From positions 1,253 through 65,252 of the forward strand of contig JBGAMJ010000013.1 in the NCBI GenBank assembly GCA_044223035.1: a stretch of 64,000 nucleotides of DNA. The letters run 5' to 3'. Positions 34,772-50,461 of this stretch are shown here, piece after piece. The translations under genes and the position numbers were made by a program. Every line of letters begins with the position of its first letter. Position 1 is the first letter of the stretch. Under the pieces are notes generated by a model, which saw only the letters and a program-made list of their open reading frames with translations, was not told the origin of the DNA and did no database searches. The DNA is from Piscinibacter sp. GTDB taxonomy: Bacteria > Pseudomonadota > Gammaproteobacteria > Burkholderiales > Burkholderiaceae_C.

Positions 34772-34859
34772 ATTGATCAAAAAAATGACCGCAGACCAGG
34801 CCGCGATCGTTCCGGCCTTTGCGAGCAACGTGACGAAAGGCTGCTGGCCGAGGGATTCG

Positions 34860-34871
34860 GATAGCGCTATC
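34860..34871. promoter_or_regulatory. second copy of the operator core
   Basis: GATAGCGCTATC is a perfect 12-bp palindrome sharing the ATAGCGCTAT core with 34754-34771. Confidence 0.4.
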
Positions 34872-34949
34872 TTAGGACTCGCATCACGCTGCCGACATAG
34901 TATTTACCCGCATGTGCGGAGAACGCCTCCGCGCCGACTTTCAGGAGGA

Positions 34950-35115
34950 TGGCCTCGTGCCGCTGCCTCCGGCTCGAGGGCGACCACCTTCACGCCCGCC
35001 TCGAGCAGCCGGTCCACGATCGCCTCGTGGTCATCGAGGCCGGTCAGCGCGACAACGTCGTCCCAGCGCGGCAGGCAGACGTCGGTGGGTCGGAATGCCT
35101 CGATCGTCGGCCGCG
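34950..35115 (-). pseudogene. internal fragment of a PfkB-family sugar kinase gene (KdgK-like)
   Basis: ...LPRWDDVVALTGLDDHEAIVDRLLEAGVKVVALEPEAAARG resembles the C-terminal third of 2-keto-3-deoxygluconate kinases. There is no N-terminus and no proper end. Confidence 0.35.
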
Positions 35116-35564
35116 CCGCCGCGCCGCCGCGATGGCTGGCAGGGGCAGGCCCGACGCCGCATGGCGACGCGCGGCCGAACCGGCGCGCAAGTGGCCCGCT
35201 CGACAGCCGCACGCAGCACCGGGTCGGTCACCTGCTCGGCCAGTGCCTGGCGCATGCACAGCATCCATTCGTCGCGTTCCACCGTGCCGATCGCATATGG
35301 CGCGTGCCGCATGCGCAGCCGGGGATGGCCTCGCTCCTGGATGTACAGCGGCGGCCCGCCGAACCAGCCGCTCAGGTACTTGAAGAGGCTGTCGGCGCTG
35401 CCGGCCAGGCTCTCGGGGTGCAACTGGCGCACGGTGTAGGCCTCGGGCAACTCGTCCATCAGCGGGTAGAAGCGGTCCACCAGGGAGCGGACGGCCGACG
35501 CGCCGCCCAGGCGGACGTAGACGCTGTCGGTCGCGACAGCGGGGGACTCCAGGGTTTTGGTCAT
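35031..35564 (-). CDS. group II truncated haemoglobin (GlbO type) with an aberrant extended C-terminus
   Basis: VYVRLGGASAVRSLVDRFY..., ...YLSGWFGGPPLYIQERGHPRLRMRHAPYAIG..ERDEWMLCM... is a clear trHbO match. After ...LRAAVERA the sequence becomes Arg/Pro-rich and runs about 40 codons longer than usual. Confidence 0.75.
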   Translation of the reverse strand: MTKTLESPAVATDSVYVRLGGASAVRSLVDRFYPLMDELPEAYTVRQLHPESLAGSADSLFKYLSGWFGGPPLYIQERGHPRLRMRHAPYAIGTVERDEWMLCMRQALAEQVTDPVLRAAVERATCAPVRPRVAMRRRACPCQPSRRRGGAADDRGIPTHRRLPAALGRRCRADRPR

Positions 35565-35595
35565 GGTGTGCAGGGCTTTCAGGTTCAGCGGTACG

Positions 35596-36741
35596 TCAGC
35601 GGTACTGACGCAGGTAGTTCCACTCGAAGCCGCGTTTGGCCCAATGGAGCAAGCGTGTGGACGGCAGCAGCCAGTTGCGATCCGGCGTGCGCCAGATCAG
35701 CGTGCCGTGGTCGATGGCGTCGACGATGCAGATGAGCTCGACCTTGAAAGTGGCGTTGGCGGCGCGGCCTAGCAGGTCGGCGAGCAGGTTCTCGGCCGCG
35801 GCCGCCGCCTGCAGGTCGGCCATGTGCGCCTGCTTGGGCATCCAGTCGGGGCCTGGGAAGCTGCCCGAATCGCCCACCACATAGGTGCGCTCGGCGCCCG
35901 GAACGCGGCAGTGCACATCGGCCTGCAGCAGGCCGCCCGGCGAGCGTGGCAGCTCGGTGGAATCGAACCAGGCATTGCCGGTCATGCCGGGCATGAAGAG
36001 GATCAGGTCGGCGGCGAACTCGCCGCCCTCGGTCACGACCTTGTCGGCCTCGAATCGCTTGAGCTTGTGGCCCAAGTGGGTGCGGATGCCGCGCCGCGCC
36101 ATCTCGCCCAGCAGGTGCTTCACCGCCTTCGGCCCCAGGCGGTTGCCGGGTTCGGTGCTCGGGTTGAAAAAGACGACCTCGAAACGTTCTCGCCGACCCT
36201 CGCGCTTGAGTTGTTCGTCGATGCCGAAGAGGAACTCGAACATCGGCCCGCCGCGCACCGCGGTGGGCTCGTTCGGGTTGCCGGCGAAGCCAACGGCGAT
36301 CGTGCCGCCCTGCATCTCGCGCAGGCGGTCGCGGATGCGCTCGGCGGCCGTGATGCCTTCGCAAGGCGTGATGGCGTGTTCGATGCCCGGCAGCTTCTTG
36401 ATGAAGCGGCCACCGGTGGCGATGACCAGGGCGTCGTTGGCCACGTCGCCTTGGGTGGTGTGTACCGTGCGCCCACCATCGGCCAGCCCAGTGACTTCGG
36501 CCGGGTGGAACTCCACATCCATGCGCCGCAGGAAGTTGTCCAGCGGCACCACCAGGTCGGCGCGCGTGCGCAGGCCGCTGGGAATCCAGATGATGCCAGG
36601 CAGGTAGTGCAACTCGGCGCGCGGTGCCACCAGCGTGATGCGCGCGGCGGGATCGCGGCGACGCAGTTCGCGCACCGTGGACAGAGCCCCGAAGCCTGCG
36701 CCCAGCACGGTGATGCGCGCCGGGTCTCGACCGGATGTCAT
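35596..36741 (-). CDS. FAD/NAD(P)-dependent oxidoreductase, SQR/NDH-2-like but lacking the SQR redox cysteines
   Basis: 381 aa from ATG 36741. Rossmann motif ITVLGAGFGALST, second dinucleotide fold IAVGFAG, and YVVGDSGSF. Colinear with the bona fide SQR at 52455. Confidence 0.8.
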   Translation of the reverse strand: MTSGRDPARITVLGAGFGALSTVRELRRRDPAARITLVAPRAELHYLPGIIWIPSGLRTRADLVVPLDNFLRRMDVEFHPAEVTGLADGGRTVHTTQGDVANDALVIATGGRFIKKLPGIEHAITPCEGITAAERIRDRLREMQGGTIAVGFAGNPNEPTAVRGGPMFEFLFGIDEQLKREGRRERFEVVFFNPSTEPGNRLGPKAVKHLLGEMARRGIRTHLGHKLKRFEADKVVTEGGEFAADLILFMPGMTGNAWFDSTELPRSPGGLLQADVHCRVPGAERTYVVGDSGSFPGPDWMPKQAHMADLQAAAAAENLLADLLGRAANATFKVELICIVDAIDHGTLIWRTPDRNWLLPSTRLLHWAKRGFEWNYLRQYR

Positions 36742-37166
36742 GCGGCACTCGCCGGCTGGCTCGCGGTGCCGTTGGCCAGCCGCGCCACCACCCGCTGCAG
36801 CGCTGCGGTCGCCAGCTCGCACGCGGCATGCACGACTTGGTTGTGGGTGGCTGCCGCGATGACGGCCGGGTCCTGCAGCGCGATGCGCGTCACACCCGGC
36901 CGTGCTTCGGCCACGCCGCAGCCGCATGGCAGCATCGCACCCATGTCGGGCTCGGCGCTCAGGATGGCGTGGGCCACCTTGGGGCTGCAGATGCCCAGCA
37001 GCTTCTGCGGATGGCTGTCCAGGCCCAGCTTGGCCTTCAGCGTGGCCTGCACGTCGACCTCGCTGACGATGCCCATCTGTTCGGCGGCGAGTGCCGCCCG
37101 CAGTGTCTCGATCGCGGCCGCCAGGGGCTGAGGCAGGTCAATGGTGAGGACGTAGGCGGTGGTCAT
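36738..37166 (-). CDS. DUF302 domain protein
   Basis: 142 aa: ...MGIVSEVDVQATLKAKLG...KLLGICSPKVAHAILSAEPDMGAMLPCG... matches the DUF302 pattern. ATGA overlap with the downstream oxidoreductase gene. Confidence 0.75.
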   Translation of the reverse strand: MTTAYVLTIDLPQPLAAAIETLRAALAAEQMGIVSEVDVQATLKAKLGLDSHPQKLLGICSPKVAHAILSAEPDMGAMLPCGCGVAEARPGVTRIALQDPAVIAAATHNQVVHAACELATAALQRVVARLANGTASQPASAA

Positions 37167-37200
37167 GGTCTCGGTTCTCGTTGTCGGGGTGAAGGTCGGG

Positions 37201-37830
37201 TCAGGAGGGTTCGGCTGCCGGCAGCTCACGTACCCGTGCCAGGAACTCATCGCGTGTGGCACCGCTGAACCAGGGGTGCCAACGGCGCTGCTCAAGCACG
37301 TTGGAAACGGCACGCGAGCGTTGGGCGTGGCCGGTGAACAGCAGCGTCTCGGATGGCCGTAGGAACACGTCGTTCACAACGCTGTCCCACAGGGCTTCGG
37401 GCAGGGCCGGGCGCGGCTGAAAGGGGCAGGCGTCCACGGCGAGGAGCCCGCCGCAGAACAGGCGGTCACGCCACAGGTAGCTCAGGCACCAGGCGGTGTG
37501 ACCCGGCGTGCGCAGCACCTGGACATGCTCGTTACCGAAGGTCAGGATGGAGTGCTCTGCCTCGGCCGCTGTCGCGGACGCGGGAAGGCTGTGCTGGATG
37601 CGGGGTGCACCCAGCGCGTCCAGCGCGGCGGCTTCACCCGCCAGCGGCGCGTCGTGCTCATGGGTGCGCAGCAGCCAGCGCAGGCGCAGCTGATGCTCGT
37701 CGAGCATGGTGCCGAGCAGGGGAACGTCAGCGCCGCGCGGGTCGATCAGCACGGCCTCACCGGCGTCGAGGTCGGCAAGCAGATAGCTCACCGCGCCGCT
37801 GCGTTCGTCGTGCAGGAGTCGGAAGTACAT
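37201..37830 (-). CDS. MBL-fold protein related to persulfide dioxygenases, with a degenerate metal-ligand set
   Basis: 209 aa: ...VLIDP..., LLRTHEHDAP (in place of THxHxDH), LRTPGHTAWC, LFCGGLL (in place of GD). The overall pattern parallels the PDO at 54076. Confidence 0.75.
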   Translation of the reverse strand: MYFRLLHDERSGAVSYLLADLDAGEAVLIDPRGADVPLLGTMLDEHQLRLRWLLRTHEHDAPLAGEAAALDALGAPRIQHSLPASATAAEAEHSILTFGNEHVQVLRTPGHTAWCLSYLWRDRLFCGGLLAVDACPFQPRPALPEALWDSVVNDVFLRPSETLLFTGHAQRSRAVSNVLEQRRWHPWFSGATRDEFLARVRELPAAEPS

Positions 37831-37852
37831 GGATCGCTCCTTCCGCAGTCGT

Positions 37853-38143
37853 TCAGTGCTGAAGCTTCAGCACGGCGGCCAGCAGCAGCGCGGCTGCGCA
37901 GGACCAGCCGGAGAACAGCGCACGCCAGACCCACAGCCGGGGCACGAAGCCCACGCCGCGCACGAAACCCGCACTCATGGCCCAGAACAGCGCCATGGCC
38001 AGGTTGTGGGCGGCCTTGCCGGCCGCATCGGCCATCAGTGGCGGATACAGCGTGCCGGCCACCATGATCACCAGCGCTGCCGTCAGGCTGGGCCACTGGA
38101 TGCGCGGCGGGGCAGGCGCGGCAGGCACCGTCGGGGTGTTCAT
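37853..38143 (-). CDS. ybgE: cyd operon protein YbgE
   Basis: 96 aa hydrophobic protein: ...ALFWAMSAGFVRGVGFVPRLWVWRALFSGW... resembles E. coli YbgE (WAVCAGVIHGVGFRP). ATGA overlap with cydX. Confidence 0.7.
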   Translation of the reverse strand: MNTPTVPAAPAPPRIQWPSLTAALVIMVAGTLYPPLMADAAGKAAHNLAMALFWAMSAGFVRGVGFVPRLWVWRALFSGWSCAAALLLAAVLKLQH

Positions 38144-38271
38144 TGCCGCGCTCCATCGTCGCCATCACGGCTGGCCTGGGCGCGAGCCGCTTCGTTCTCG
38201 CCCCACATGGCGTTCACGATTGCCAGCAAAACCGCGAAGCCGACACCGAGCATCCAGGCGAAGTACCACAT
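38140..38271 (-). CDS. cydX: cytochrome bd oxidase small subunit CydX (43 aa; too short for the ORF track)
   Basis: MWYFAWMLGVGFAVLLAIVNAMWGENEAARAQASRDGDDGARQ; the MWYFAW start is diagnostic of CydX. Confidence 0.8.
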   Translation of the reverse strand: MWYFAWMLGVGFAVLLAIVNAMWGENEAARAQASRDGDDGARQ

Positions 38272-38283
38272 GATTCAGATCTT

Positions 38284-38907
38284 TCAGGCTGCGGCGTCGT
38301 CGCCGATGAGGATCCGCGTGTCGCCCGCGTAGCGGTGCGGCGGGATCTCCAGGTTGGTCGGCGCCGGCTTGTTCCTGAACACCCGGCCGGCGCCGTCGAA
38401 GGTGGATCCATGGCAGGGGCAGAAGAAGCCGCCGGGCCAGTCTGCCGGCAGGCTGGGGTTGTTGCCGCCCTTGGGCGCGTCACTGGGCGAGCAGCCCAGG
38501 TGGGTGCAGATGCCGATGGCCACGAACACCTCGGGCTTGATGGCCCGCGCCGCGTTCCTGGCGTAGGCCGGTTGCCGCTCTTTCGTGGACTGCGGGTCCA
38601 CGAGCTCGGCGTCATGGCCTTGCAGCGCGGCCAGCATCTCCGGCGTGCGGCGCACCACCCAGACGGGCTTGCCGCGCCACTCCACGGTCTTCACGCCACC
38701 GGGAGGGATGTCGGAGATGTCCACTTCGACGGGGCCGCCGGCGGCCTTGGCCCGTTCGCTCGGCGCAAAGGTCGAGACGAAGGGAATGGCCGTGGCCAGG
38801 GCCGCGGCACCGCCGGCAGCGCCGGTGGCGATGAGCCACAGCCGCTTGTCCGGATCGTGCGCCGTTGCCTGGACGGACGGGCAGTTGATGGGCAGGGTGG
38901 GGTTCAT
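38284..38907 (-). CDS. bc1-type Rieske [2Fe-2S] subunit paralogue (PetA-like), orphan
   Basis: 207 aa from ATG 38907. PetA N-terminus (KRLWLIATGAAGGAAALATAIPFVSTFAPSERAKAAG) and Rieske boxes CTHLGCSP and CPCHGSTF. No cytochrome b or c1 gene lies nearby. Confidence 0.9.
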   Translation of the reverse strand: MNPTLPINCPSVQATAHDPDKRLWLIATGAAGGAAALATAIPFVSTFAPSERAKAAGGPVEVDISDIPPGGVKTVEWRGKPVWVVRRTPEMLAALQGHDAELVDPQSTKERQPAYARNAARAIKPEVFVAIGICTHLGCSPSDAPKGGNNPSLPADWPGGFFCPCHGSTFDGAGRVFRNKPAPTNLEIPPHRYAGDTRILIGDDAAA

Positions 38908-38939
38908 GGTCGGTTCCTCGTGGCAGGCTGAGCTTGGGA

Positions 38940-40079
38940 TCAATATGCCGTGTGTTCGTTGGCGCGTATGTGCGCCAGGGTGACCTTGCCGCGCATCACT
39001 CGGTAGGCCCAGGACGTGTAGAACACGATCAGCGGCATGAAGATCAGCGTGGCCCAGAACATCAGGCCCAGCGTCAGGTGGCTGGAGACGCTGTCCCACA
39101 CCGTCAGGCTGGCGTTGGGCTGGCTCGACGAGGGCATCACGAAGGGGAACATCGCCGCGCCGGCCGTGCCGATCACACCCACGATGGCCAGCGCCGAAGC
39201 CACGAAGGCGCTGAGCGTGCGGCCTGCCAGCACCAGGGCGGCAGCGGCCAGCGCGCCGGCAATGCCGAGTGCCGGCAGCGCCCACAACAGCGGCTGTTGG
39301 CGATAGTTGATCCACCAGCCATCGGCGCTGCGCGCCACGGTCTTGGCCAACGGGTCGGGCAGGGCACCCGGGTCGATGGCCGAGGTGATGACGAAACCCT
39401 CGATGCCACCGTACTTCAGCCACAGGCCGGCGCCGACGAAGGCCAGCACCATCAGCGCCGCCGCACCCACTGCGCCGCGGATTGCGCGCCCTTGGATGGC
39501 GCCCTCGGTGCGGTGCGCCAGGTACATGCCGCCGTGCATGGTGATCATCGCGCTGCTCACCACGCCGGCCAGCAGCGCAAACGGGTTGAGTAGCTGCCAG
39601 AACGTGCCGGTGTAGGTGCTGATCAGGTAGTCGTCGAAGCCAAAGGGCACGCCCTGCAGCAGGTTGCCGAAGGCCACGCCGAAGATCAGCGGTACGGCGC
39701 CGCCGACGAACAGGCCCCAGTCCCAGGTGCTGCGCCAGGTCGCGTTGTGGATCTTGCTGCGGTAGTCGAAGACCACCGGGCGGAAGAACAGCGCCCACAG
39801 CACGGCGAGCATGGCCCAGTAGAAGCCGCTGAAGGCCGTGGCATAGACCAGCGGCCAGGCGGCGAAGATGGCGCCGCCGCCGGTGATGAACCAGACCTGG
39901 TTGCCGTCCCAGTGCGGGCCGACGGTGTTGATGACGACACGGCGCTCGTCGTCACCCTTGCCGACGAAGGGCAGCAGGGTGCCCACGCCCATGTCGTGGC
40001 CGTCCATGATGGCGAAGCCGACGAGCAGCACACCCACCAGCAGCCACCAGATGATCTTGAGGGTCTGATAGTCGATCAT
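38940..40079 (-). CDS. cydB: cytochrome bd ubiquinol oxidase subunit II
   Basis: 379 aa: MIDYQTLKIIWWLLVGVLLVGFAIMDGHDMGVG..., ...GPHWDGNQVWFITGGGAIFAAWP... Confidence 0.95.
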   Translation of the reverse strand: MIDYQTLKIIWWLLVGVLLVGFAIMDGHDMGVGTLLPFVGKGDDERRVVINTVGPHWDGNQVWFITGGGAIFAAWPLVYATAFSGFYWAMLAVLWALFFRPVVFDYRSKIHNATWRSTWDWGLFVGGAVPLIFGVAFGNLLQGVPFGFDDYLISTYTGTFWQLLNPFALLAGVVSSAMITMHGGMYLAHRTEGAIQGRAIRGAVGAAALMVLAFVGAGLWLKYGGIEGFVITSAIDPGALPDPLAKTVARSADGWWINYRQQPLLWALPALGIAGALAAAALVLAGRTLSAFVASALAIVGVIGTAGAAMFPFVMPSSSQPNASLTVWDSVSSHLTLGLMFWATLIFMPLIVFYTSWAYRVMRGKVTLAHIRANEHTAY

Positions 40080-40096
40080 GATGTGTCTCGGTGAGC

Positions 40097-41653
40097 TCAG
40101 GCGTGCGCCGGTTCGAACTGGTAGCGGCCTGTGCCCAGGCTGCCGGGACCTTGCCTTGCGAACTTCTGCATCAGGTAGATCTCGACGATCAGCAGCACGG
40201 TGTAGAAGCCGATGAAGCCGGCCAGCGATCCGTACAGGCTGTTGACGCTGAGCGTGGACACGCTCATGTGCGTGGGCAGCACGCCGTAGATGGTCCAGGG
40301 CTGGCGGCCGTACTCGGCCACCACCCAGCCCAGTTCGCTGGCGATCCAGGGGGCGGGCAGCATCAGCACCGCCGCGCGCAGCAGCCACGGGCGGGCGCGG
40401 CACTCGCTCTTGAGCGTGCTCCAGAAGCTCAAGGCGAACAGCAGCAGCATCGCAAAGCCCAGGCCCACCATGATGCGGAAGCTCCAGAACATCGGCGTCA
40501 CCTTGGGCACGGTGTCGTGCATGGCGCGATCGATCATCTCGGGCGTGGCCTGGCGCACGTCGGTGGTGTACTTCTTCAGCAGCAGCCCGAAGCCGAGGTC
40601 GCCCTTGGTGGCTTCCAGCATGCGCTTGGCCTCTTCGTCGCCACGGTTCTTGCGCAGGGTTTCGAGCGCGGTGACGGCGGTGATGCCGTTGACGATGCGC
40701 TCGCGGTTCCTGGCCTTGATCTCGTGGATGCCGGGGATCTGCTTGCTGATCGAGCGCGTCCCGATCAGACCCATCACGTAGGGAACCTCGATCTCCCAGT
40801 CGTTTTCCTGGGCTTGTTCGTTGATGCCGGCGATCAGCTTCAGGCCGGCGGGTGCGGGCTCGGTCTCCCACATGGCTTCCAGCGCGGCCATCTTGGTCTG
40901 CTGGGCCTCGCCTACGGTGTAGCCGCTCTCGTCGCCAAGCACGATGACGCTCAGCACGCTGGCCAGGCCGAAGGCCGATGCCACGCGGAAGCTGCGCTTG
41001 GCGAACTCGACATCGCGGCCCTTGAGAAGGTACCAGCTCGACACCGACAGCACGAACATCGCGCCGGTCACATACCCGGCCGACACGGTGTGCACGAACT
41101 TGGCCTGCGCGTCGGGGTTGAACACCACCGCCCAGAAGTCCGTCATCTCCATGCGCATGGTCTGGTAGCTGAACTCGGCGCCCACCGGGTTTTGCATCCA
41201 GCCGTTGGCGATCAGGATCCACAGCGCACTGAGATTGGTGCCCACCGCCATCAGCGTGGTCACCATCAGGTGCTGGGTCTTCGTGAGCCGGTCCCAGCCG
41301 AAGAAGAACAGGCCGATGAAGGTGCTCTCCAGGAAGAAGGCCATCAAGCCCTCGATGGCGAGCGGCGCGCCGAAGATGTCGCCCACGTAGTGCGAGTAGT
41401 AGGCCCAGTTGGTGCCGAACTGGAACTCCAGCGTGATGCCGGTGGTGACGCCGAGGGCGAAGTTGATGCCGAAGAGCTTGCCCCAGAAGCGGGTCATGTC
41501 CTTCCAGATGACGTTGCCCGTCATCACATAGACGCTCTCCATGATGACCAGCAGCCACACCATGCCCAGCGTCAGCGGCACGAAGAGAAAGTGGTACATC
41601 GCCGTGGCGGCAAACTGCAGCCGCGACAGGTCGACGAGTTGTTCCGAAATCAA
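40097..41653 (-). CDS. cydA: cytochrome bd ubiquinol oxidase subunit I
   Basis: 518 aa from TTG 41653, with GGAG 8 nt upstream. (M)ISEQLVDLSRLQFAATAMYHFLFVPLTLG..., a Q-loop, and ...GWVVAEYGRQPW... Confidence 0.95.
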   Translation of the reverse strand: MISEQLVDLSRLQFAATAMYHFLFVPLTLGMVWLLVIMESVYVMTGNVIWKDMTRFWGKLFGINFALGVTTGITLEFQFGTNWAYYSHYVGDIFGAPLAIEGLMAFFLESTFIGLFFFGWDRLTKTQHLMVTTLMAVGTNLSALWILIANGWMQNPVGAEFSYQTMRMEMTDFWAVVFNPDAQAKFVHTVSAGYVTGAMFVLSVSSWYLLKGRDVEFAKRSFRVASAFGLASVLSVIVLGDESGYTVGEAQQTKMAALEAMWETEPAPAGLKLIAGINEQAQENDWEIEVPYVMGLIGTRSISKQIPGIHEIKARNRERIVNGITAVTALETLRKNRGDEEAKRMLEATKGDLGFGLLLKKYTTDVRQATPEMIDRAMHDTVPKVTPMFWSFRIMVGLGFAMLLLFALSFWSTLKSECRARPWLLRAAVLMLPAPWIASELGWVVAEYGRQPWTIYGVLPTHMSVSTLSVNSLYGSLAGFIGFYTVLLIVEIYLMQKFARQGPGSLGTGRYQFEPAHA

Positions 41654-41859
41654 GGTTGTGCTCCGCTTCTTGGGCTGACAGGGGCCGATGACAGGGGACG
41701 GGCGTCGACAACGGCGCCCAGATGGGCAGCGGCACGATCGGCATCGACGCCGACCCGTTCGTCTCGCACGAAGGCCCACCAGAGCCCGGTCAGCACCACG
41801 AGCTTCAGCGCGACGGTGATGACGAGGTGGCGGACGAGACGGTCCTGGGCGGCCTTCAT
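41650..41859 (-). CDS. cydP: CydP-like small membrane protein preceding cydA
   Basis: 69 aa: MKAAQDRLVRHLVITVALKLVVLTGLWWAFV... TTGA overlap with the cydA start. A paralogue at 55766-55945 has the same arrangement. Confidence 0.65.
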   Translation of the reverse strand: MKAAQDRLVRHLVITVALKLVVLTGLWWAFVRDERVGVDADRAAAHLGAVVDARPLSSAPVSPRSGAQP

Positions 41860-41907
41860 ACCCTAATAGGTATCAAGACGCATGCCACCCGAATGGCAGG
41901 CAAAGAG

Positions 41908-41921
41908 TTGTTTGAAATCAA
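41908..41921. promoter_or_regulatory. FNR/ANR-type box upstream of cydP
   Basis: TTGTT-TGAA-ATCAA matches TTGAT-N4-ATCAA in 9 of 10 positions. Its centre is about 55 bp upstream of the cydP ATG. Confidence 0.4.
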
Positions 41922-41963
41922 GAACTTGCAGCGCCAAAGTCGCCGGCACTGCCAAGCCGGCTC

Positions 41964-41979
41964 AGCACGGGCTATGCCA
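41964..41979 (-). promoter_or_regulatory. sigma-54-type promoter candidate facing the cyd cluster
   Basis: Minus strand reads TGGCATAGCCCGTGCT, with GG and GC at the canonical -24/-12 spacing (consensus TGGCAC-N5-TTGCW). It lies about 105 bp upstream of the cydP ATG. Confidence 0.4.
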
Positions 41980-41990
41980 GATTGGCGGCG

Positions 41991-42009
41991 AACTGCCAGA
42001 ATGGCAGTT
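41991..42009. promoter_or_regulatory. perfect 8-3-8 palindrome AACTGCCA-GAA-TGGCAGTT (regulator site candidate)
   Basis: One of three TGCCA-N3-6-TGGCA dyads in the cydP/rhodanese divergent region. The others are at 41883-41898 and 41975-41986. Confidence 0.4.
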
Positions 42010-42217
42010 GGATCGAGCGGCGGCGGGCTTTGGACTTCAGTCGACGCTTATATGCAGAATGGATTAATTGCCGTCGAGCGGATGACGCGAGACTTCGACA
42101 CGACGCCCGCTATCCAGGATTGCGACCGCATACACCGACACTGCCCACATGGACCTCCATTTCCCGACACACCCACCACCGCGCCAAGTCACCTGTTGCC
42201 AGCATCGTCGCGAGTGG

Positions 42218-42622
42218 ATGCATCGAGCGGCGGTGACGCTGCTGGCAGCGGCGCTGGCGGGATGCGGCCAGACCGAGGCTTCGACGGACGCTGTGAGTCT
42301 GGAGACGGCCCGGGCTGAGCACGAGGCCGGGCGCGCGGTGCTGATCGACATCCGGGAGCCCGAGGAACATGCCACCGGCGGCGTTGCAGCGGGCGCCAAG
42401 CTGCTGCCGATGCGGCAGTTGAACCAAAGGGGCCATGAGATCCCGACCCGTGCGGACCAGCCGGTGCTGCTGATCTGCAACACGCAGAACCGATCGAGCG
42501 CGACTCTGCGGGCACTGCGTGAACGGGGCTACGCCCACGTGCGCTATGTGAACGGCGGCATGAGCGAGTGGGCGCGCCGGGGATGGCCGATGGTGAAGCC
42601 TGCCGCTGGACCGGGGTCCTGA
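42218..42622 (+). CDS. rhodanese-domain lipoprotein (sulfurtransferase)
   Basis: 134 aa from ATG 42218. Lipobox LLAAALAGC; rhodanese active-site loop CNTQNRS; ...VLIDIREPEEH... Confidence 0.8.
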   Translation: MHRAAVTLLAAALAGCGQTEASTDAVSLETARAEHEAGRAVLIDIREPEEHATGGVAAGAKLLPMRQLNQRGHEIPTRADQPVLLICNTQNRSSATLRALRERGYAHVRYVNGGMSEWARRGWPMVKPAAGPGS

Positions 42623-42663
42623 CTCCTCCCCTGGACTTGAGCCCGTCATCTTCATCGGCACCC

Positions 42664-43392
42664 ATGCAGACCATACCGATCTATTGTCAGGACGGGGCCC
42701 ATCCCCAGGCGCGGGCCTGCGCCGCCTGCGAGGTGCGCAGCACGGCAATCTTCGGCGTGCTGGACGATGCGGGGCTGGACCGCATCCATACCCAGATCGC
42801 CACGCTGACCCTCGGGCCCGACGCCACGGTGTATGACCGCGGCACGGCTGGGCTGGCGGTGTTCACGATCCGCGAGGGCCTGGTGCGCTTCGAACGCAGC
42901 AGCGAACACGGCGATCGCCGCATCGTGCGCATTGCCGGCCGCGGCGATCTGATCGGCCAGGAAGCGCTGCTTCAACGTCCCTACGCCGATGACGCCATCG
43001 CCTGCACAGAGGTCCATCTGTGCCGCATACCGCGCGCCCTGGTCGATCAGCTGACCCAAGGCCGCGACGCGCTGCCGCGCGAACTGATGCTGCGCTGGCA
43101 GGGGGCGCTGGATGCTGCCGAAGCCTGGGTGTCGGACCTGTCCACGGGACCGGTGCGGCGCAGGCTGCTGCACCTGCTGAGGCGTCTGGGCGAACACGCA
43201 GGCCCCGACAGCACCATCTGGTTGCCGCGCCGCGAGGAGATCGGGGCGATGCTGGACATGACAGTGGAAACGGCCAGCCGTCTGGTCAGCGCCCTGCGTC
43301 GCGAAGGCGTGCTCACCCTGGCCCCGGGGCGCAGTGCGTTGCTCGACCGCGCCGCCTTGCGCCAGGCCTTGCTGGCCGAGGGCGCGGCGTGA
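42664..43392 (+). CDS. Crp/Fnr-family transcriptional regulator with an N-terminal cysteine cluster
   Basis: 242 aa. C8-x10-C19-x2-C22 (YCQDGAHPQARACAAC) precedes a cNMP-binding-like barrel, and there is a C-terminal HTH (REEIGAMLDMTVETASRLVSALRREG). Confidence 0.85.
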   Translation: MQTIPIYCQDGAHPQARACAACEVRSTAIFGVLDDAGLDRIHTQIATLTLGPDATVYDRGTAGLAVFTIREGLVRFERSSEHGDRRIVRIAGRGDLIGQEALLQRPYADDAIACTEVHLCRIPRALVDQLTQGRDALPRELMLRWQGALDAAEAWVSDLSTGPVRRRLLHLLRRLGEHAGPDSTIWLPRREEIGAMLDMTVETASRLVSALRREGVLTLAPGRSALLDRAALRQALLAEGAA

Positions 43393-43424: not shown

Positions 43425-44771
43425 ATGGCCACCGTCCTGCCCGAACTGGTGTCGTACCTGGAAGGCCTTCCTGAGCCGCACATCCTGTTCGACAGCCAGT
43501 ACCGCATCATCGCGGCCAACGCCGCCTACCGGCGCCAGTTCAGCCCGCAGGCCTCGGTGGTCGGGCGCACCTGCTACGAGGTGTCGCACCACTTCAGCCT
43601 GCCTTGTGACCAGGCGGGCGAGAGCTGTCCGCTGGCCCGCTCGCGCGAGTCGGGGCAGCGCGAGCGCGTGCTGCACCTGCATCACACGCCGCAGGGCGAG
43701 TCCTACGTCAACATCGAACTCGTGCCACTGCGCGACGGGCGTGGTGAGCAGGCCTACTTCATCGAAAAGATGGAGCCCTTGCGCGTGGCGCAGGGCCAGC
43801 CGGCAGCGCAGGGCCTGATCGGGCGCTCGCCGGCCTTTCAGCGCATGCTGGAACTGGTGTCGCGCGTCGGACCGTCGCAGGCCAGCGTGCTGCTGCTGGG
43901 TGAGTCGGGCACCGGCAAGGAACTGTTGGCGCAGGCCGTGCATGAAGCCAGCCCGCGAGCCGCCAATGCCCTGGTGGTGGTCGACTGCGCCAGCCTGCCG
44001 GAGACCTTGTTCGAGAGCGAACTCTTCGGCCACGAACGCGGTGCCTTCACGGGCGCCAACACCAGCAAGCCCGGACTGGTGGAGGCCGCCAGCGGCGGCA
44101 CCTTGTTCCTGGACGAGGTGGGCGACATTCCGCTGCCGATGCAGGTGAAGCTGCTGCGGCTGCTGGAGAGCGGCACCTACCGCCGCGTGGGCAGCACCGA
44201 GCTGCGGCGCACCGATGTGCGCGTGGTGGCAGCGACGCACCGGGACCTGAAGAGGATGGTCGCCGAGGGGCGCTTCCGCGAGGATCTCTACTACCGGCTG
44301 AGCACGTTCCCGATCACGCTCCCCGCTTTGCGGGACCGTGTCGAAGACATCCCTTTGCTGGCGGTGGCCTTGCTGGCACGGGTGGCGCCGCAGCGCCGGA
44401 TGTCACTGTCCACCGGCGCACTGGCGGTGCTGCAGCGCCATGCGTTCCCGGGCAATGTGCGGGAGCTGCGCAATGTGCTGGAGCGTGCCGCCCTGCTGGC
44501 CGATGGCGCCAGCATCGAGCCCGTGCATGTGGAGCGCGCCCTGGGCTCCGATGAGCCCGCTTCCGCCAGGCGCGCCTCAGGCCCAGCATCGCCCGAAAGC
44601 CTGGCCGCGTCGGCAACCGACGCGTCGCTGCGAAGCGTGGAGCGCGCAGCTTTGCAGGCCCAGCTCAAGGCTCACCGCGGCAGCCGCGCCGAACTGGCAC
44701 GAAAGCTCGGCATCAGCGAACGCTCGCTGTATCGCAAGCTGCGCGACATCGACCAGGAGCCGCCCGCCTGA
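43425..44771 (+). CDS. sigma-54-dependent Fis-family activator, FisR-like (PAS-like Cys-rich sensor + AAA+ + HTH)
   Basis: 448 aa. Sensor region with C50-x10-C61-x6-C68; AAA+ core ([14 protein letters not shown], the sigma-54 contact loop [22 protein letters not shown]); C-terminal HTH ([16 protein letters not shown]). Confidence 0.9.
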
Positions 44772-45318: not shown

Positions 45319-45732
45319 TCAGGCCTTGCTCCGCCCCCGCTTGACCGCCGGCTGTACGCTGCGCACGAAGGCGCGGTGGTCGCCGGCCGCGCGCTCCAGC
45401 TGGCGCGCGATGCTGCCGCAGACCAGGTCGCACAGCGCATACACCGACGCGTCGGCGATGCGGTAGTACACGGCGGTGCCACGGCTTTCGCGCTCCACCA
45501 GGCCGTGCTGCATCAGCAGCGCCAGGTGGCGCGAGATGTTGGCCGAGGTGTAGCCCGTGGCTTGGGCCAGCTCGCCCACGTTGCGCTCGCCGCTGCGCAG
45601 CAGGTTGAGGATCTGCAGGCGCGTCGGCTCCGACAGCGCCTGGAAGTACGCCGCCACCTGGTTCAGCGCCTCCGGGGGCAAGCCTTCCATGCTCGGACAC
45701 GAGGGAGTGGTCGAAGCGGAATCATGCCTCAT
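45319..45732 (-). CDS. ArsR/SmtB-family transcriptional regulator
   Basis: FQALSEPTRLQILNLLRSGERNVGELAQATGYTSANISRHLALLMQHGLVERESRGTAVYYRI is a classic ArsR wHTH. C-terminal cysteine pair in ALCDLVCGS. The start may be the internal MEGLPPE. Confidence 0.85.
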   Translation of the reverse strand: MRHDSASTTPSCPSMEGLPPEALNQVAAYFQALSEPTRLQILNLLRSGERNVGELAQATGYTSANISRHLALLMQHGLVERESRGTAVYYRIADASVYALCDLVCGSIARQLERAAGDHRAFVRSVQPAVKRGRSKA

Positions 45733-45757
45733 CGCGAGCCGCCTTGAAAAAAGCTGA

Positions 45758-45773
45758 TCAAGTAGCTACTTGA
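45758..45773. promoter_or_regulatory. perfect 16-bp palindrome TCAAGTAGCTACTTGA (operator candidate) overlapping a -35 box
   Basis: Lies in the 82-bp AT-rich gap between the divergent arsR-like and RND-adaptor genes. TTGACT (45770-45775), 17 bp, then AATACT (45793-45798) forms a plus-strand sigma-70 promoter candidate. Confidence 0.5.
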
Positions 45774-45814
45774 CTGTTTACCTATCTAGCTAAATACTAC
45801 AACACATCGAACCG

Positions 45815-46948
45815 ATGTCACAGCCCCGCATGCAACGGATGAACCAAGCAACCCACGCGCTCGCCGCGGCCGGCGCCACCCTTGCGGCCGCCGCGGCGCT
45901 GGCCTTTGCCCTGGCAGGCGCCGTGCCCTCGCTGGCCGCCGACGCCCCACTGGCCACCGCACCGGTGGCCGCTTCCTCCGCTGCCGGCGCCACCGCCTTC
46001 GACGGCGTGGTGCAGGCGGTGCGGCAGACCGTGCTGGCCGCGCAGGTGCCCGGCGCGGTGGTGGCGCTCGACGTCAAGGCCGGCGAGCGGGTGAAGACCG
46101 GCCAGGTGCTGCTGCGGCTCGACGCGCGCGCGGCCGAGCAGCAGGCCGGCGCCGCCGCCGCGCAGGTGCAGGCCGCGCGCGCCGCGCAGGAGGCCGCCAC
46201 CAAGGAGTTCGAGCGCCAGAAGCTTCTCTTCCAGAAGCACTACATCAGCCAGGCCGCGCTGGACCGCGCCGAGGCGCAGTACAAGGCCGCCCAGGCCGGC
46301 GCCGCCGCGCAGCTGGCCGAGGCCGGCGCCATGCGCACGCAATCCGGCTTCTACGTGGTGAAGGCGCCCTACGCGGGCGTGGTGTCGGAGGTGTCGGTGG
46401 TGCTGGGCGACATGGCCATGCCGGGCCGCCCGCTGCTGACGGTGTACGACCCCGCCGCCTTGCGCGTGAGCGCCGCGGTGCCGCAGACGGCTGCCGCGCG
46501 GCTGGGCACGCCCATCGAGCCGCAAACTGCATCGCCACCGGGATCGCCCGCGGCGCCGCAACCCATGCCGCAGGTGGAGCTGCCTGGCGCGGCGCCGGCG
46601 CGGATCGCGCCCACGCACTGGCAGCTGATGCCCTCGGTGGACCCGGCCACCCACACGCAGGAGCTGCGGCTGGACCTGCCCGCGGGCCTGAATGCCAGCC
46701 CCGGCATGTTCGCCCGCGCCTGGCTGCCGGGCGGTGCCGGCGAGGCGCCGCGCCTGGCCGTGCCGGCCGCCGTGGTGGTGCGCCGGGCCGAGCTGACCGC
46801 GGTGTACGTGGTGGCGCCCGACGGCAAGCCGCTGCTGCGCCAGGTGCGCCTGGGCCGCGCGAGCGGCGAGCAGGTGGAGGTGCTCGCCGGGCTGGCCGCC
46901 GGCGAGCGCGTGGCGCTGGATCCGCAGGCCGCGGCCCGGGTGCGCTGA
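45815..46948 (+). CDS. RND efflux periplasmic adaptor (membrane fusion protein)
   Basis: 377 aa with signal/anchor, a coiled-coil hairpin (AAEQQAGAAAAQVQAARAAQEAATKEFERQKLLFQKHYISQAALDRAEAQYKAAQAG) and beta-barrel domains. Its last base overlaps the RND gene start. Confidence 0.9.
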   Translation: MSQPRMQRMNQATHALAAAGATLAAAAALAFALAGAVPSLAADAPLATAPVAASSAAGATAFDGVVQAVRQTVLAAQVPGAVVALDVKAGERVKTGQVLLRLDARAAEQQAGAAAAQVQAARAAQEAATKEFERQKLLFQKHYISQAALDRAEAQYKAAQAGAAAQLAEAGAMRTQSGFYVVKAPYAGVVSEVSVVLGDMAMPGRPLLTVYDPAALRVSAAVPQTAAARLGTPIEPQTASPPGSPAAPQPMPQVELPGAAPARIAPTHWQLMPSVDPATHTQELRLDLPAGLNASPGMFARAWLPGGAGEAPRLAVPAAVVVRRAELTAVYVVAPDGKPLLRQVRLGRASGEQVEVLAGLAAGERVALDPQAAARVR

Positions 46949-49900
46949 TGGAACCGATGGGCATCTCCGGCCGCATCGCGCGCTACTTCCAGGCCGCGCA
47001 GATCACGCCGCTGCTGGCGCTGGTGGCGCTGCTGCTGGGCGTGTTCGCGGTACTGGTCACGCCGCGCGAGGAGGAGCCGCAGATCAACGTGACCATGGCC
47101 AACGTGCTGATCCCGTTTCCCGGCGCCTCGGTGAAGGACGTGGAGCAGATGGTGGCGGTGCCGGCCGAGCAGGTGCTGTCCCAGATCGCGGGCACCGAGC
47201 ACGTGATGAGCGTGTCGCGGCCGGGGCTGGCGATCGTCACCGTGCAGTTCAAGGTGGGCGTGCCGCGCACCGAGGCGCTGGTGCGGCTGTACGACACGGT
47301 GAACGCCAACGCCGACTGGCTGCCCCGGGGCCTGGGCGTGGGCGAGCCGCTGATCAAGCCCAAGGGCATCGACGACGTGCCCATCGTCACGCTCACGCTG
47401 CACACGAAAGACCCGCTGGGCAGCGCCTTCGACCTGGAGCGGGTGGCGCACACGCTGGAAGCAGAGCTGAAGCGCGTGCCCGGCACGCGCGAGATCAACA
47501 CGATCGGCGGCCCGGGCCGCGCGGTGCGGGTGGAGATCGACCCCGCACGCATGGCCGGCGCCGGCGTCACCGTGGCCGAGCTGCGGCAGGCGCTGCAATC
47601 GGCCAACCTCGGTGCGCCGATGGGCGATCTGCTGGGCGGCGACCGCGCGGTGGCGCTGGAGGCCGGCCCCTACCTGCGCGATGCGCGCGACGTGGGCGAG
47701 CTGGTGGTGAGCGTGCGCGGCGGCAAGCCGGTGTTCCTGCAGGACGTGGCCCGGGTGGTCGACGGGCCGCTGCCGCCGCAGCGCTATGCGTGGTTCGGCG
47801 ACAAGGCCGGCGAGGCACCGGCCGTGACGATCGCCATCACCAAGAAGCCCGGCGAGAACGCGATCACTGTGGCCGACGCGGTGATGCAGCGGGTGCAGGC
47901 CGTGCGCAACACGCTGGTGCCCGCCAGCGTGGAGGTGCGCGAGACGCGCAACTACGGCGCCACCGCAAACGACAAGGCGATGAAGCTGATCCAGAAGCTG
48001 CTCTTCGCCACCGCCTCGGTGGTGGCGCTGGTGTTCATCGCGCTGGGCCGGCGCGAAGCGGCGATCGTGGGCAGCGCGGTGATCCTCACGCTCACGGTCA
48101 CGCTCTTCGCCTCCTGGGCCTGGGGCTTCACGCTCAACCGCGTGTCGTTGTTCGCGCTGATCTTCTCGATCGGCATCCTGGTCGATGACGCGATCGTGGT
48201 GGTGGAAAACATTCATCGCCACCTGGCGATGAATGTTTCGGCGCAGGCTGACTTGGCCAAAGGCCAAGTTAAGGACGCGCAAGCGTCCGGCCGGAGGCAA
48301 AACATCCTGGTCGAAGTCATTCCGCGCGCGGTGGACGAGGTGGGCGGCCCCACCATCCTCGCCACGCTGACCGTGATCGCGGCGCTGCTGCCGATGGCTT
48401 TCGTGTCGGGGCTGATGGGCCCGTACATGAGCCCCATCCCCATCAACGCGAGCATGGGCATGCTGCTCTCGCTGGCCATCGCGTTCGTCGTCACGCCGTG
48501 GCTCTCGCGGCTGTGGATGAAGCACACGGGCCACGGCCATGCTGAAGGCAAGGGCCTGGCCGCGAAGCTCGGCCCCTTGTTCGACCGCGTGTTCCGCCCT
48601 CTGCTCGACAACCAGCGCGGCGCGCGCAACCGGGCCTTGCTGGGCGCCGGCGTCGCGGGGCTGATCGCCCTGTCCCTCGCGCTGCCGGTGCTGGGCCTCG
48701 TGGTGCTGAAGATGCTGCCCTTCGACAACAAGTCGGAGTTCCAGGTGGTGGTGGACATGCCCGCCGGCACGCCGGTGGAGCGCACGGGAGCGGCCCTGCG
48801 CGAGATGGGCGCCTACCTCGCGCGCCAGCCGGAGGTGACCGACTACCAGGCCTATGCCGGCACGGCCGCGCCGATCAACTTCAACGGCCTGGTGCGGCAG
48901 TACTACCTGCGCACCGGCGGTGAGGTGGGCGACCTGCAGGTGAACCTGGTCGACAAGCACCAGCGCAGCGAGCAGAGCCATGCCATCGCCACGCGGCTGC
49001 GCCCGGCGCTGCAGAAGATCGGCCGCCGCCACGGCGCCAACGTGAAGGTGGTGGAGGTGCCGCCCGGGCCGCCGGTGCTCTCACCCATCGTGGCCGAGGT
49101 GTACGGGCCGGAGGCCGAGGGCCGGCGCCAGGTGGCGCAGGCGGTGCGCAATGTGTTCGAGCAGACGCCCGGCGTGGTGGACGTGGACGCCTCGGGCATC
49201 GCCGACGCGTCGCGCAGGCTGCTGCTGGTCGACCGCCGCAAGGCCGCGCTGCTGGGCGTGCCGCAGGCCGCGATCGTGAGCACGCTGCGCGCAGGCCTGG
49301 CCGGCGAGGCCACCGCCTACCTGCACGACCAGAGCAAGTACCCCGCGGCCGCCACGATCCAGCTGCCGGCCGAAAGCCACGGCGACCTGAACACGCTGCT
49401 GCAGCTGGGCGTGCGCGGCGCGGCTGGCCAGATCGTGCCCGTCCGTGAGCTGGTGACGGTGATCGACACGCTGCGTGAGCAGCCCGCGTTCCACAAGGAC
49501 GGGCTGCCGGTGCACTACGTGGTGGGCGACATGGCCGGCGCGGTGGACAGCCCGCTGTACGGCATGTTCAAGATGCGCAGCGCCCTCGCCGCTATCCCAA
49601 CGCCGGGCGGTGGCAGCTTGGGCGAAACCTTCATCCGGCAGCCCGCCGACGCCTGGCGCGACTACGCGATCAAGTGGGACGGCGAGTGGCAGATCACCTA
49701 CGAGACCTTCCGCGACATGGGCGCGGCATATGCGGTGGGCCTGATCCTGATCTACCTGCTGGTGGTGGCGCAGTTCGGCTCGTACCTCACGCCGCTGATC
49801 ATCATGGCGCCGATCCCGCTGACCATTGTGGGCGTGATGCCGGGCCACGCGCTGCTGGGCGCGCCCTTCACCGCCACCAGCATGATCGGCATGATCGCGC

Positions 49901-50238
49901 TGGCCGGGATCATCGTGCGCAACTCGATCCTGCTGGTGGACTTCATCCGCCTGCAGGTGGCGCAGGGCATGCCGCTGAAGGAAGCGGTGGTGCGCTCGGC
50001 CGCCACGCGCGCTCAGCCCATCCTGCTGACCGGCCTGGCCGCGATGCTGGGCGCGCTCTTCATCCTCGACGACCCGATCTTCAACGGGTTGGCGATTTCG
50101 CTGATCTTCGGCATCTTCGTGAGCACCGTGCTCACGCTGGTGGTGATCCCGCTGCTGTATTTCGTGGCCTACCGGCGGCAGCTGGTGCCCGCCTCCCCTT
50201 CCTCATCCTCCTCGACTCCTGAAGGAGCACACGCATGA
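46948..50238 (+). CDS. RND efflux transporter permease (AcrB/CzcA superfamily)
   Basis: 1096 aa with 12-TM RND architecture and two large periplasmic loops (...FSIGILVDDAIVVVENIHRH..., ...IALAGIIVRNSILLVDF...). Confidence 0.95.
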   Translation: MEPMGISGRIARYFQAAQITPLLALVALLLGVFAVLVTPREEEPQINVTMANVLIPFPGASVKDVEQMVAVPAEQVLSQIAGTEHVMSVSRPGLAIVTVQFKVGVPRTEALVRLYDTVNANADWLPRGLGVGEPLIKPKGIDDVPIVTLTLHTKDPLGSAFDLERVAHTLEAELKRVPGTREINTIGGPGRAVRVEIDPARMAGAGVTVAELRQALQSANLGAPMGDLLGGDRAVALEAGPYLRDARDVGELVVSVRGGKPVFLQDVARVVDGPLPPQRYAWFGDKAGEAPAVTIAITKKPGENAITVADAVMQRVQAVRNTLVPASVEVRETRNYGATANDKAMKLIQKLLFATASVVALVFIALGRREAAIVGSAVILTLTVTLFASWAWGFTLNRVSLFALIFSIGILVDDAIVVVENIHRHLAMNVSAQADLAKGQVKDAQASGRRQNILVEVIPRAVDEVGGPTILATLTVIAALLPMAFVSGLMGPYMSPIPINASMGMLLSLAIAFVVTPWLSRLWMKHTGHGHAEGKGLAAKLGPLFDRVFRPLLDNQRGARNRALLGAGVAGLIALSLALPVLGLVVLKMLPFDNKSEFQVVVDMPAGTPVERTGAALREMGAYLARQPEVTDYQAYAGTAAPINFNGLVRQYYLRTGGEVGDLQVNLVDKHQRSEQSHAIATRLRPALQKIGRRHGANVKVVEVPPGPPVLSPIVAEVYGPEAEGRRQVAQAVRNVFEQTPGVVDVDASGIADASRRLLLVDRRKAALLGVPQAAIVSTLRAGLAGEATAYLHDQSKYPAAATIQLPAESHGDLNTLLQLGVRGAAGQIVPVRELVTVIDTLREQPAFHKDGLPVHYVVGDMAGAVDSPLYGMFKMRSALAAIPTPGGGSLGETFIRQPADAWRDYAIKWDGEWQITYETFRDMGAAYAVGLILIYLLVVAQFGSYLTPLIIMAPIPLTIVGVMPGHALLGAPFTATSMIGMIALAGIIVRNSILLVDFIRLQVAQGMPLKEAVVRSAATRAQPILLTGLAAMLGALFILDDPIFNGLAISLIFGIFVSTVLTLVVIPLLYFVAYRRQLVPASPSSSSSTPEGAHA

Positions 50239-50444: not shown

Positions 50445-50461
50445 CATGGACCACCCCCGCA

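Follow-up and report, generated by a model that had tools for sequence, protein, structure and literature searches.

In the 64-kb stretch of Piscinibacter sp. DNA analysed here (contig JBGAMJ010000013.1; "the window" below means this whole stretch), a minus-strand cluster at 35031-41859 joins the genes of a cytochrome bd-I oxidase to a bc1-type Rieske gene and to genes resembling those of sulfide metabolism. From the regulator encoded next to it and the sites ahead of its first gene, cydP, the cluster is predicted, with a probability of about 0.7, to be a single sigma-54-dependent operon, in which all ten genes would be transcribed under a divergently encoded FisR-family protein activated by sulfane sulfur. 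FisR itself, control by sigma-54 and the resistance of bd oxidases to sulfide are known; the novelty lies in what the regulon contains, in the operator sequence, and in a Rieske protein and a degenerate persulfide dioxygenase (PDO) as regulon members.

Sulfide poisons haem-copper oxidases. To our knowledge, little of the wiring by which sulfide induces cytochrome bd has been described, and no sulfide-specific switch of the Rieske isoform. In full-text searches of the literature, neither a FisR-controlled cyd operon nor a cyd operon with a Rieske gene in it was found to have been described. At the present locus, a candidate induction wiring can be read from the genome, where a FisR-type sensor gene, an enhancer and a sigma-54 promoter directly precede the oxidase genes.

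Divergent FisR-family regulator

The sigma-54 activator is encoded on the plus strand at 43425-44771 and combines a PAS_4 domain (PF08448, residues 12-112), an AAA+ domain (Sigma54_activat, PF00158, residues 131-297) and a Fis-type helix-turn-helix domain (HTH_8, PF02954, residues 402-440). NCBIfam contains no FisR-specific model, and the protein matched generic sigma-54 activator families of this collection, all below cut-off. A tblastn search of plasmid/chromid records revealed 52% identity over residues 3-445 (99% of the length) to a protein of Cupriavidus metallidurans CH34, whose gene is divergent from that of a type II PDO, as is typical of fisR-pdo loci. Cys50, Cys61 and Cys68 of the activator are invariant in 66 orthologues; their 11- and 7-residue spacing and their VPCDQAGExCP context match the C. 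metallidurans protein, in which the cysteines are found at positions 53, 64 and 71 (counted along the protein). In Cupriavidus pinatubonensis FisR, a C53-C64 tetrasulfide is reported to form upon reaction with sulfane sulfur (PMC8614764). Sequence identity, domain architecture and cysteine pattern place the divergent activator in the FisR family.

Its gene is part of a divergent rhodanese-crp-fisR unit on the plus strand. The first gene of this unit encodes a rhodanese with a lipoprotein-type signal (PF00581; ~42218-42622, with an alternative start at 42149) and is followed by a Crp/Fnr-family regulator gene at 42664-43392 (PF00027, PF13545). These three neighbours had been named in a sequence-only reading of the window, and the Pfam matches bore them out.

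Control region upstream of cydP

Three elements were located on the minus strand ahead of cydP. A sigma-54 type -24/-12 promoter, TGGCATGCGTCTTGAT, was read from the sequence at 41872-41887 and ends 12 nucleotides (nt) ahead of the cydP ATG. About 120 nt upstream of this promoter (TGGCAT-N5-TTGAT) is an enhancer palindrome, CTGCCATTCTGGCAG (41993-42007; CTGCCA-N3-TGGCAG), as the candidate FisR binding site or upstream activating sequence (UAS), from which two overlapping degenerate copies continue to 41974. Between enhancer and promoter is an IHF-like site, CAAGTTCTTGATT (41916-41928; YAA-N4-TTGATW), starting 41 nt upstream of the -24 element. The palindrome at 41993-42007 is the sole perfect one in the window and the sole one paired with a sigma-54 motif. 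No sigma-70-like promoter was matched in 34800-42700.

The same layout was recovered in related loci. The -24/-12 motif is conserved as TGGCACG-N4-TTG(A/T/C) in about 47 of them, where it always fronts the first co-directional gene, be it cydP, a CIO-type cydA, the Rieske gene or the MBL-fold gene. A CTGCCA-N3-4-TGGCAG site, often in two or three overlapping copies, was found ~100-120 nt upstream of the -24 element in 48/48 loci (4.1 expected from shuffles), and the IHF-like site at -40 to -45 relative to that element in 38/48 (3.35 expected from shuffles). Matching palindromes and promoters were also found at canonical fisR-pdo loci (L081, L083), where they front pdo in C. metallidurans CH34 and ygaP-pdo-sqr-tauE in Methylibium. 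Taken together, the layout of enhancer, IHF-like site and sigma-54 promoter argues that the activator binds the candidate enhancer upstream of cydP and drives the cluster.

Two candidate FNR boxes, the TTGAT beside the -12 element and TTGATTTCAAACAA upstream, were considered and rejected, the conserved feature being the IHF-type YAA-N4-TTGATW at its fixed position.

The sigma-54 motif ends 12-13 nt before the cydP start not only in the window but also in at least 12 further species (L001, L003, L007, L008, L016, L021, L033, L034, L035, L044, L047, L072); at other loci, the distance from motif to start is ~30 nt. Given the usual sigma-54 spacing, 12-13 nt would leave a leader of ~2 nt, so that the cydP mRNA is predicted to be essentially leaderless.

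Gene content of the cluster

The G+C content of the window is ~69%, hence raw lists of open reading frames (ORFs) are noisy, and genes were called by reading the minus strand across the junctions in combination with Pfam and NCBIfam scans. This confirmed ten real genes, all on the minus strand, in the order cydP-cydA-cydB-Rieske-cydX-ybgE-MBL-DUF302-flavoprotein-globin, as the sequence-only reading had listed them. Its three 4-nt overlaps (cydP/cydA, cydX/ybgE and DUF302/flavoprotein) and its gaps of 12-34 nt were likewise read at the junctions, the remaining six gaps being, in gene order, 17, 32, 12, 22, 34 and 31 nt.

The complete bd-I set of CydA, CydB, CydX, YbgE and CydP is present, each above Pfam/NCBIfam cut-offs. 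The first gene, cydP (41650-41859; NF045611, 51 bits, cut-off 29.6), encodes a small membrane protein found ahead of cydA in Burkholderiales, and owes its name to work on Burkholderia cenocepacia (PMC9104464). Cytochrome bd-I subunit I with a long Q-loop is encoded by cydA (40097-41653, TTG start; PF01654, E = 2e-176), and the protein aligned over its full length (residues 4-514) to Escherichia coli CydA in PDB entry 6RKO with 718 bits. Subunit II is encoded by cydB (38940-40079; TIGR00203, 482 bits, cut-off 117), the bd-I small subunit by cydX (38140-38271; PF08173 and TIGR02106, both above cut-off) and the cyd operon protein YbgE by ybgE (37853-38143; PF09600, 78.7 bits, cut-off 25.2). The gene for the Rieske iron-sulfur protein, a PetA paralogue, is inserted between cydB and cydX at 38284-38907.

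Conservation and modularity across Burkholderiales

Relatives of the MBL-fold protein were collected in a scan of one genome per species, which gave 199 stretches, of which 80 loci were kept. All 80 are from Burkholderiales, with Rubrivivax, Sphaerotilus, Aquabacterium, Methylibium, Hydrogenophaga, Rhodoferax, Polaromonas, Azohydromonas, Acidovorax, Ottowia, Comamonas and Glaciimonas among the genera; the closest loci are those of a Burkholderiaceae metagenome-assembled genome (MAG; L001) and of Sphaerotilus sulfidivorans D-501 (L002). Synteny was counted by tblastn in the 67 species-level loci whose contig reaches the regulator position.

The activator gene is divergent and upstream in 67/67 loci. 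What varies is the slot that separates it from the MBL-fold gene. This slot holds a bd-I operon with the Rieske gene in 12 loci and without it in another 12, a CIO-type (short Q-loop) cydAB with the Rieske gene in four and without it in two, and the Rieske gene alone in 18, and is empty in 19. A bd oxidase thus occupies the slot in 30/67 loci (24 bd-I, 6 CIO-type) and a Rieske gene in 34/67. On the far side of the MBL-fold gene, where 62 loci have sufficient downstream sequence, globin (26), flavoprotein (20), rhodanese (17), DUF302 (11), PDO (4) and TauE (3) genes were found. The exact ten-gene order is kept in L001, S. sulfidivorans D-501 and L007; genes for an intact PDO, TauE and rhodanese are inside the co-directional cluster in L034, L079 and L060.

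The 80 loci had been chosen via the MBL-fold gene, and three close cydA homologues were taken as an independent sample. At all three loci (Rubrivivax albus, Paucibacter sp. KCTC 42545 and a Giesbergeria MAG), the activator is next to cydP and the cysteine triad, enhancer and promoter are present; the R. albus locus is without the MBL-fold gene. The synteny of the 67 loci and the result for the three cydA-sampled loci establish that the linkage between bd oxidase and FisR is clade-wide and not the accident of one strain. The linkage is conserved and modular, and the presumed fusion is better described as a modular FisR operon with a variable slot for a bd oxidase (bd-I or CIO) and/or a Rieske gene. 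The sequence-only reading had called for a gene-neighbourhood survey, and had held that a juxtaposition unique to this strain and lying beside recombination scars would speak against a functional module; the juxtaposition recurs in many Burkholderiales, and the regulated end of the cluster is without adjoining scars.

In the six loci with a CIO-type oxidase (L004, L006, L022, L030, L032, L036), cydAB lies between the FisR-like and MBL-fold genes, and its cydA is 32-36% identical to that of the window. The regulator, flavoprotein and globin of L006 are 93-95% identical to their window counterparts, which suggests a recent cassette exchange of the oxidase type.

Accessory proteins

The MBL-fold gene (37201-37830) encodes a protein of 209 residues that family models match weakly and that profile searches match to PDO structures (4YSB, 1e-30; 5VE3, 1e-22; 4CHL, 2e-20). 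In alignments to 9RHQ and 4YSB, the Asp of the PDO motif FTGD is replaced by Gly (FCGG), and Gly takes this position in at least 90% of the family members. The HxHxDH motif reads HEHDA, the DH being lost. The protein keeps H59 and H111 of the 2-His-1-carboxylate iron triad of PDO, as defined in PMC12856154, and is without the carboxylate ligand; across 81 sequences, H57, H59, H111, C115, C126 and C135 show little or no variation. Judged by these residues, it is a degenerate paralogue of ETHE1-type PDOs.

The SQR-like flavin adenine dinucleotide (FAD) flavoprotein (35596-36741, 381 residues; Pyr_redox_2, PF07992) gave SQRs as its best PDB matches (3SZW and 3HYV, E = 3e-19) and 85 bits against the NCBIfam SQR model, the cut-off of which is 525. 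It has Arg at the position of Cys160 of Acidithiobacillus ferrooxidans SQR and keeps the equivalent of Cys356; C127, C278 and C338 are invariant in 22 orthologues. In the DUF302 protein (36738-37166; PF03625, 66 bits), C60, C81 and C116 are invariant in 15 orthologues.

The lost PDO carboxylate and the lost SQR cysteine, together with the invariant cysteines that were kept, point to proteins that handle sulfane sulfur or sulfide and are not PDO or SQR enzymes. Most likely, the accessory proteins bind, carry or buffer sulfide or sulfane sulfur outside the canonical SQR/PDO pathway. The view that the "PDO-like" and "SQR-like" genes make up a working SQR/PDO pathway, implied by the sequence-only reading, is not supported, given the missing metal-binding Asp and the missing Cys160-type cysteine.

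Globin end of the cluster

The last ORF (35031-35564) encodes a truncated haemoglobin (Bac_globin, PF01152) matched at profile positions 1-105 of 121. Homology covers 35193-35564 (124 codons) and ends at 35193, at codon 124 of the ~143 found in orthologues, while 35031-35192 is unrelated sequence. The position of this breakpoint comes from a DNA alignment to L006 and from eight orthologues, which end ...AVERAFTGMAEHMVNTGNAAGCPR; the window sequence diverges past AVERA. A frameshift was considered and ruled out, as the conserved ...FTGMAEHMVNTG... tail does not reappear in any reading frame.

In relatives, the globin stop codon overlaps a further gene. The sequence past the globin gene in L001 encodes two secreted proteins without a Pfam match, SCO1/SenC, PCuAC and a Tat-signal flavoprotein; in the window, it encodes an unrelated GntP permease and an FGGY kinase.

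Proposed mechanism and its weighing

According to the proposed mechanism, an SQR, e.g. the type I SQR encoded at 52455, would oxidise sulfide to sulfane sulfur in the form of polysulfide or persulfide, and the sulfane sulfur would cross-link the conserved cysteines in the PAS domain of the activator. Positioned at CTGCCA-N3-TGGCAG, the activator would then contact sigma-54 RNA polymerase at TGGCAT-N5-TTGAT, with DNA bending at the IHF-like site assisting the contact, and transcription would run from cydP through the globin gene. This would install a bd-I quinol oxidase by which quinol, including that made by SQR, could still be oxidised when haem-copper oxidases are poisoned, and an alternative bc1-type Rieske subunit and the cysteine-rich accessory proteins would be co-expressed with it. 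The inducing signal, the co-transcription of ten genes and what the Rieske, MBL-fold, DUF302, flavoprotein and globin proteins do are those parts of the model that we infer. In line with this mechanism, sulfide induces cydAB in Acinetobacter baumannii, E. coli and Mycobacterium tuberculosis, where the bd type of oxidase is reported to withstand sulfide (PMC7315123, PMC5702731).

The sequence-only reading had proposed a dedicated module of sulfide-tolerant respiration. This view is strengthened by the FisR-family regulator, the cis-elements and the conserved linkage, and is not supported where it takes the downstream genes for a working SQR and PDO. A tentative and more far-reaching version is that, in Sphaerotilus/Rubrivivax-type bacteria and Comamonadaceae, the FisR sensor might mainly remodel the respiratory chain and not chiefly turn on enzymes of sulfide oxidation, pairing a sulfide-insensitive bd oxidase of bd-I or CIO type with the swap of a dedicated, sulfide-inducible Rieske isoform into the bc1 complex and with non-catalytic PDO- and SQR-like helpers for sulfane sulfur.

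Several points weigh against a sulfide-responsive ten-gene operon. Sulfide induction is deduced from the homology of regulator and sites. The activator, at ~52% identity to canonical FisR, belongs to a separate subclade, and the -12 element in the window is TTGA, the canonical one being TTGC. Further promoters may be present within coding sequence. The window operon is without a catalytically intact PDO or SQR, as judged by residue comparison, and its last gene, globin, is broken. Moreover, bd oxidases and truncated globins are both linked to nitric oxide (NO) and to low oxygen, and a gene of the Crp/Fnr family is close by, between those for the rhodanese and the activator. As to the cysteines, A. 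baumannii FisR functions without them (PMC7315123), and cysteine-based enhancer-binding proteins can sense other oxidants, PexR being a sensor of H2O2 (PMC12754779).

Some of these points would also fit an operon answering low oxygen or nitrosative stress, where the activator or the Crp/Fnr protein would sense NO, O2 or peroxide and the bd oxidase and the globin would keep respiration going under NO and detoxify NO; cydPABX is indeed a determinant of anoxic survival in B. cenocepacia, where it was studied with Anr regulators (PMC9104464). We regard this as unlikely. The architecture of the activator, its cysteine triad and the enhancer are common to fisR loci that control pdo and sqr, and rhodanese, PDO and TauE recur as members of such operons. 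The Crp/Fnr gene is found in only ~9/67 loci, and its product in the window scored weakly with the FnrL, Fnr and FixK models (46-51 bits, cut-offs 228-300).

Juxtaposition without functional coupling is a still poorer account of the data. It would have a housekeeping cydPABX-ybgE cassette land between the FisR promoter and its original targets, from the MBL-fold gene onward, and the variable content of the slot (empty, Rieske only, CIO-type or bd-I) does point to cassette-like insertion; the window also bears rearrangement scars at the globin breakpoint (35193) and as IS66 debris (55990-57370). Against this, only 22 nt separate ybgE from the MBL-fold gene, too few for a terminator plus a promoter, and in every cyd-containing locus, the sigma-54 promoter and the enhancer front cydP or cydA and never the MBL-fold gene. 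That two unrelated types of bd oxidase were recruited to one slot suggests selection for a bd oxidase at this place, and the cydA-sampled loci are FisR-linked in 3/3 cases, one of them without the MBL-fold gene. The sigma-54-dependent FisR operon is preferred over both alternatives.

Rieske paralogue

The Rieske protein encoded in the cluster (38284-38907, minus strand) passes the proteobacterial bc1 model TIGR01416 (205.7 bits, cut-off 97.4), and its best PDB matches are Rieske subunits of bc1 complexes. It is a full-length subunit of the bc1 type with a membrane anchor, and 44 orthologues keep its CTHLGC and CPCHGS boxes unchanged. Its gene lies outside petABC, here between cydB and cydX and in relatives next to fisR, with or without cyd genes; the loci retrieved included no petABC. 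The N-terminus, DKRLWLIATGAAGG, has KR in place of the twin-arginine RR, with a weak match to PF10399; among close homologues in which the signal-anchor motif was found, 74 have KR and 15 RR.

A second Rieske protein of Rubrivivax gelatinosus is reported, in papers citing Ouchane 2005 (PMC4013037, PMC6256036), to be interchangeable within the bc1 complex. The most economical reading of the paralogue in the cluster is likewise that of an alternative bc1 subunit. That it should instead be a dedicated partner or subunit of the bd oxidase, in a Rieske/bd quinol oxidase, is highly improbable: at least 12 species-level loci plus L085 and L086 do have the gene inserted exactly between cydB and cydX, and it accompanies CIO-type cydAB in four loci, but an orthologue without any cyd genes is present in 18/67 loci, lone Rieske genes have their own FisR enhancer and sigma-54 promoter (L082, L083), the protein is a full-length, membrane-anchored bc1-type subunit, and the exchange within bc1 reported for R. 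gelatinosus, as cited, speaks for a role in that complex.

The lone paralogues of L082 (8001-8645) and L083 (8001-8618) are 80-83% identical to that of the window. Found in Methylibium and Rubrivivax sp. RP6-9, these lone genes each have a CTGCCA-N3-TGGCAG enhancer and a sigma-54 promoter of their own, and the Methylibium gene directly adjoins a canonical fisR / ygaP-pdo-sqr-tauE locus and sox genes. Phe in CPCHGSTFD (Tyr in Pseudomonas aeruginosa and mitochondria) was considered as the mark of a low-potential isoform and dropped, as it is present in 71/93 of the nearest motif-containing cluster representatives. Both this Phe and the KR are common to most of the nearest relatives, which makes them traits of the clade and not marks of the window copy.

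Second locus and other features of the window

A second locus was identified on the plus strand by Pfam and NCBIfam matches. It comprises genes for a type I SQR (52455-53744), a rhodanese (53758-54072), a full-length PDO (54076-54957; 350 bits against the Blh dioxygenase model) and TauE (54969-55769), followed by an intact second cydP (cydP2, 55766-55945; NF045611, 44 bits). The SQR is a canonical type I enzyme by comparison with A. ferrooxidans SQR, with three cysteines in recognisable motifs. Directly behind cydP2, a 16-codon cydA stub is fused in frame to the remnant of an IS66-family transposase (55942-57370; PF13007, PF13005 and PF03050 in two ORFs). The tnpC-like transposase is split over two frames, 55942-56745 and 56687-57370, and a short ORF without a Pfam match lies on the opposite strand at 57896-58216.

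It had been proposed that the association between cyd and sulfide genes occurs twice in the window. A cydP-cydA start does follow sqr-rhodanese-pdo-tauE, yet the cydA part is the 16-codon stub beside IS66 debris, which makes the second occurrence weak. Adjacency of tauE and cydP was absent from all other loci retrieved, and a scan of metagenomes for TauE gave one locus, which is without cydP.

The second locus forms the end of a long co-directional plus-strand string in the region 45319-55945, which also contains genes for an RND membrane-fusion protein and pump, a YgaP-like transmembrane protein, thioredoxin 2 and a TolC-like outer membrane protein before closing with type I SQR, rhodanese, PDO, TauE and cydP2; upstream of it is a divergent ArsR-family gene. 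Neither a FisR enhancer nor a sigma-54 motif was found ahead of this string. The ArsR-family gene (45319-45732) was considered as a BigR/SqrR-type persulfide repressor of the second locus and rejected, its product scoring 36 bits against the BigR cut-off of 155. The sole Rfam/ARAGORN match in the window is a tRNA-Arg (ACG) at 14952-15028, which is unrelated to the cluster.

Implications

The arrangement spans dozens of species of sulfide-exposed, environmentally important Burkholderiales (Sphaerotilus, Rubrivivax, Rhodoferax, Hydrogenophaga). It points to unrecognised members of the sulfide response, namely the bc1-type Rieske paralogue, the PDO paralogue without the metal-binding carboxylate, the DUF302 protein and the SQR-like flavoprotein, and it provides a defined candidate sequence for the FisR operator that is open to testing. 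Cultured carriers such as S. sulfidivorans D-501 exist, which makes the predictions directly testable.

Comparison with known systems

With cydPABX of B. cenocepacia H111 and cydABX-ybgE of E. coli, the cluster has the subunit set and order in common (cydP, cydA, cydB, cydX, ybgE). It differs from both in the Rieske gene between cydB and cydX, in the four further genes past ybgE and in its control, which is oxygen-responsive in those operons and here is predicted to be exerted by a FisR-type activator at a sigma-54 promoter. The Rieske gene itself has a possible counterpart in that of PetA2 of R. gelatinosus, a close relative of the operon carriers; as far as PetA2 is described in the papers citing it, it is also a bc1-type Rieske protein encoded outside petABC, whereas the present gene is embedded in a cyd operon behind FisR-type control elements.

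The MBL-fold protein is homologous across the whole fold to ETHE1-type PDOs (human, 4CHL; Myxococcus xanthus, 4YSB; BpPRF, 5VE3) and keeps the HxH motif and the PGHT His. Unlike these enzymes, it has Gly for the carboxylate ligand, has lost the DH of HxHxDH, is ~25-30 residues shorter and contains three invariant cysteines.

The closest likeness in regulation is to the FisR regulon of C. pinatubonensis JMP134 and A. baumannii, where a sigma-54 activator is encoded divergently from pdo-sqr(-tauE). The divergent placement, the architecture of PAS/regulatory, AAA+ and Fis-type helix-turn-helix domains, the cysteine triad of the Cupriavidus type and the sigma-54 promoter ahead of the first target gene all recur in the window, as does the CTGCCA-N3-4-TGGCAG enhancer located ~100 nt upstream at the fisR-pdo loci of C. 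metallidurans and Methylibium. In A. baumannii, the sulfide-induced cydAB is located elsewhere in the genome and is not among the listed members of the FisR operon (PMC7315123). The predicted targets in the window, in contrast, are the bd-I oxidase, the Rieske paralogue, the degenerate PDO paralogue, the DUF302 protein, the SQR-like flavoprotein and the globin, in place of an active PDO and SQR.

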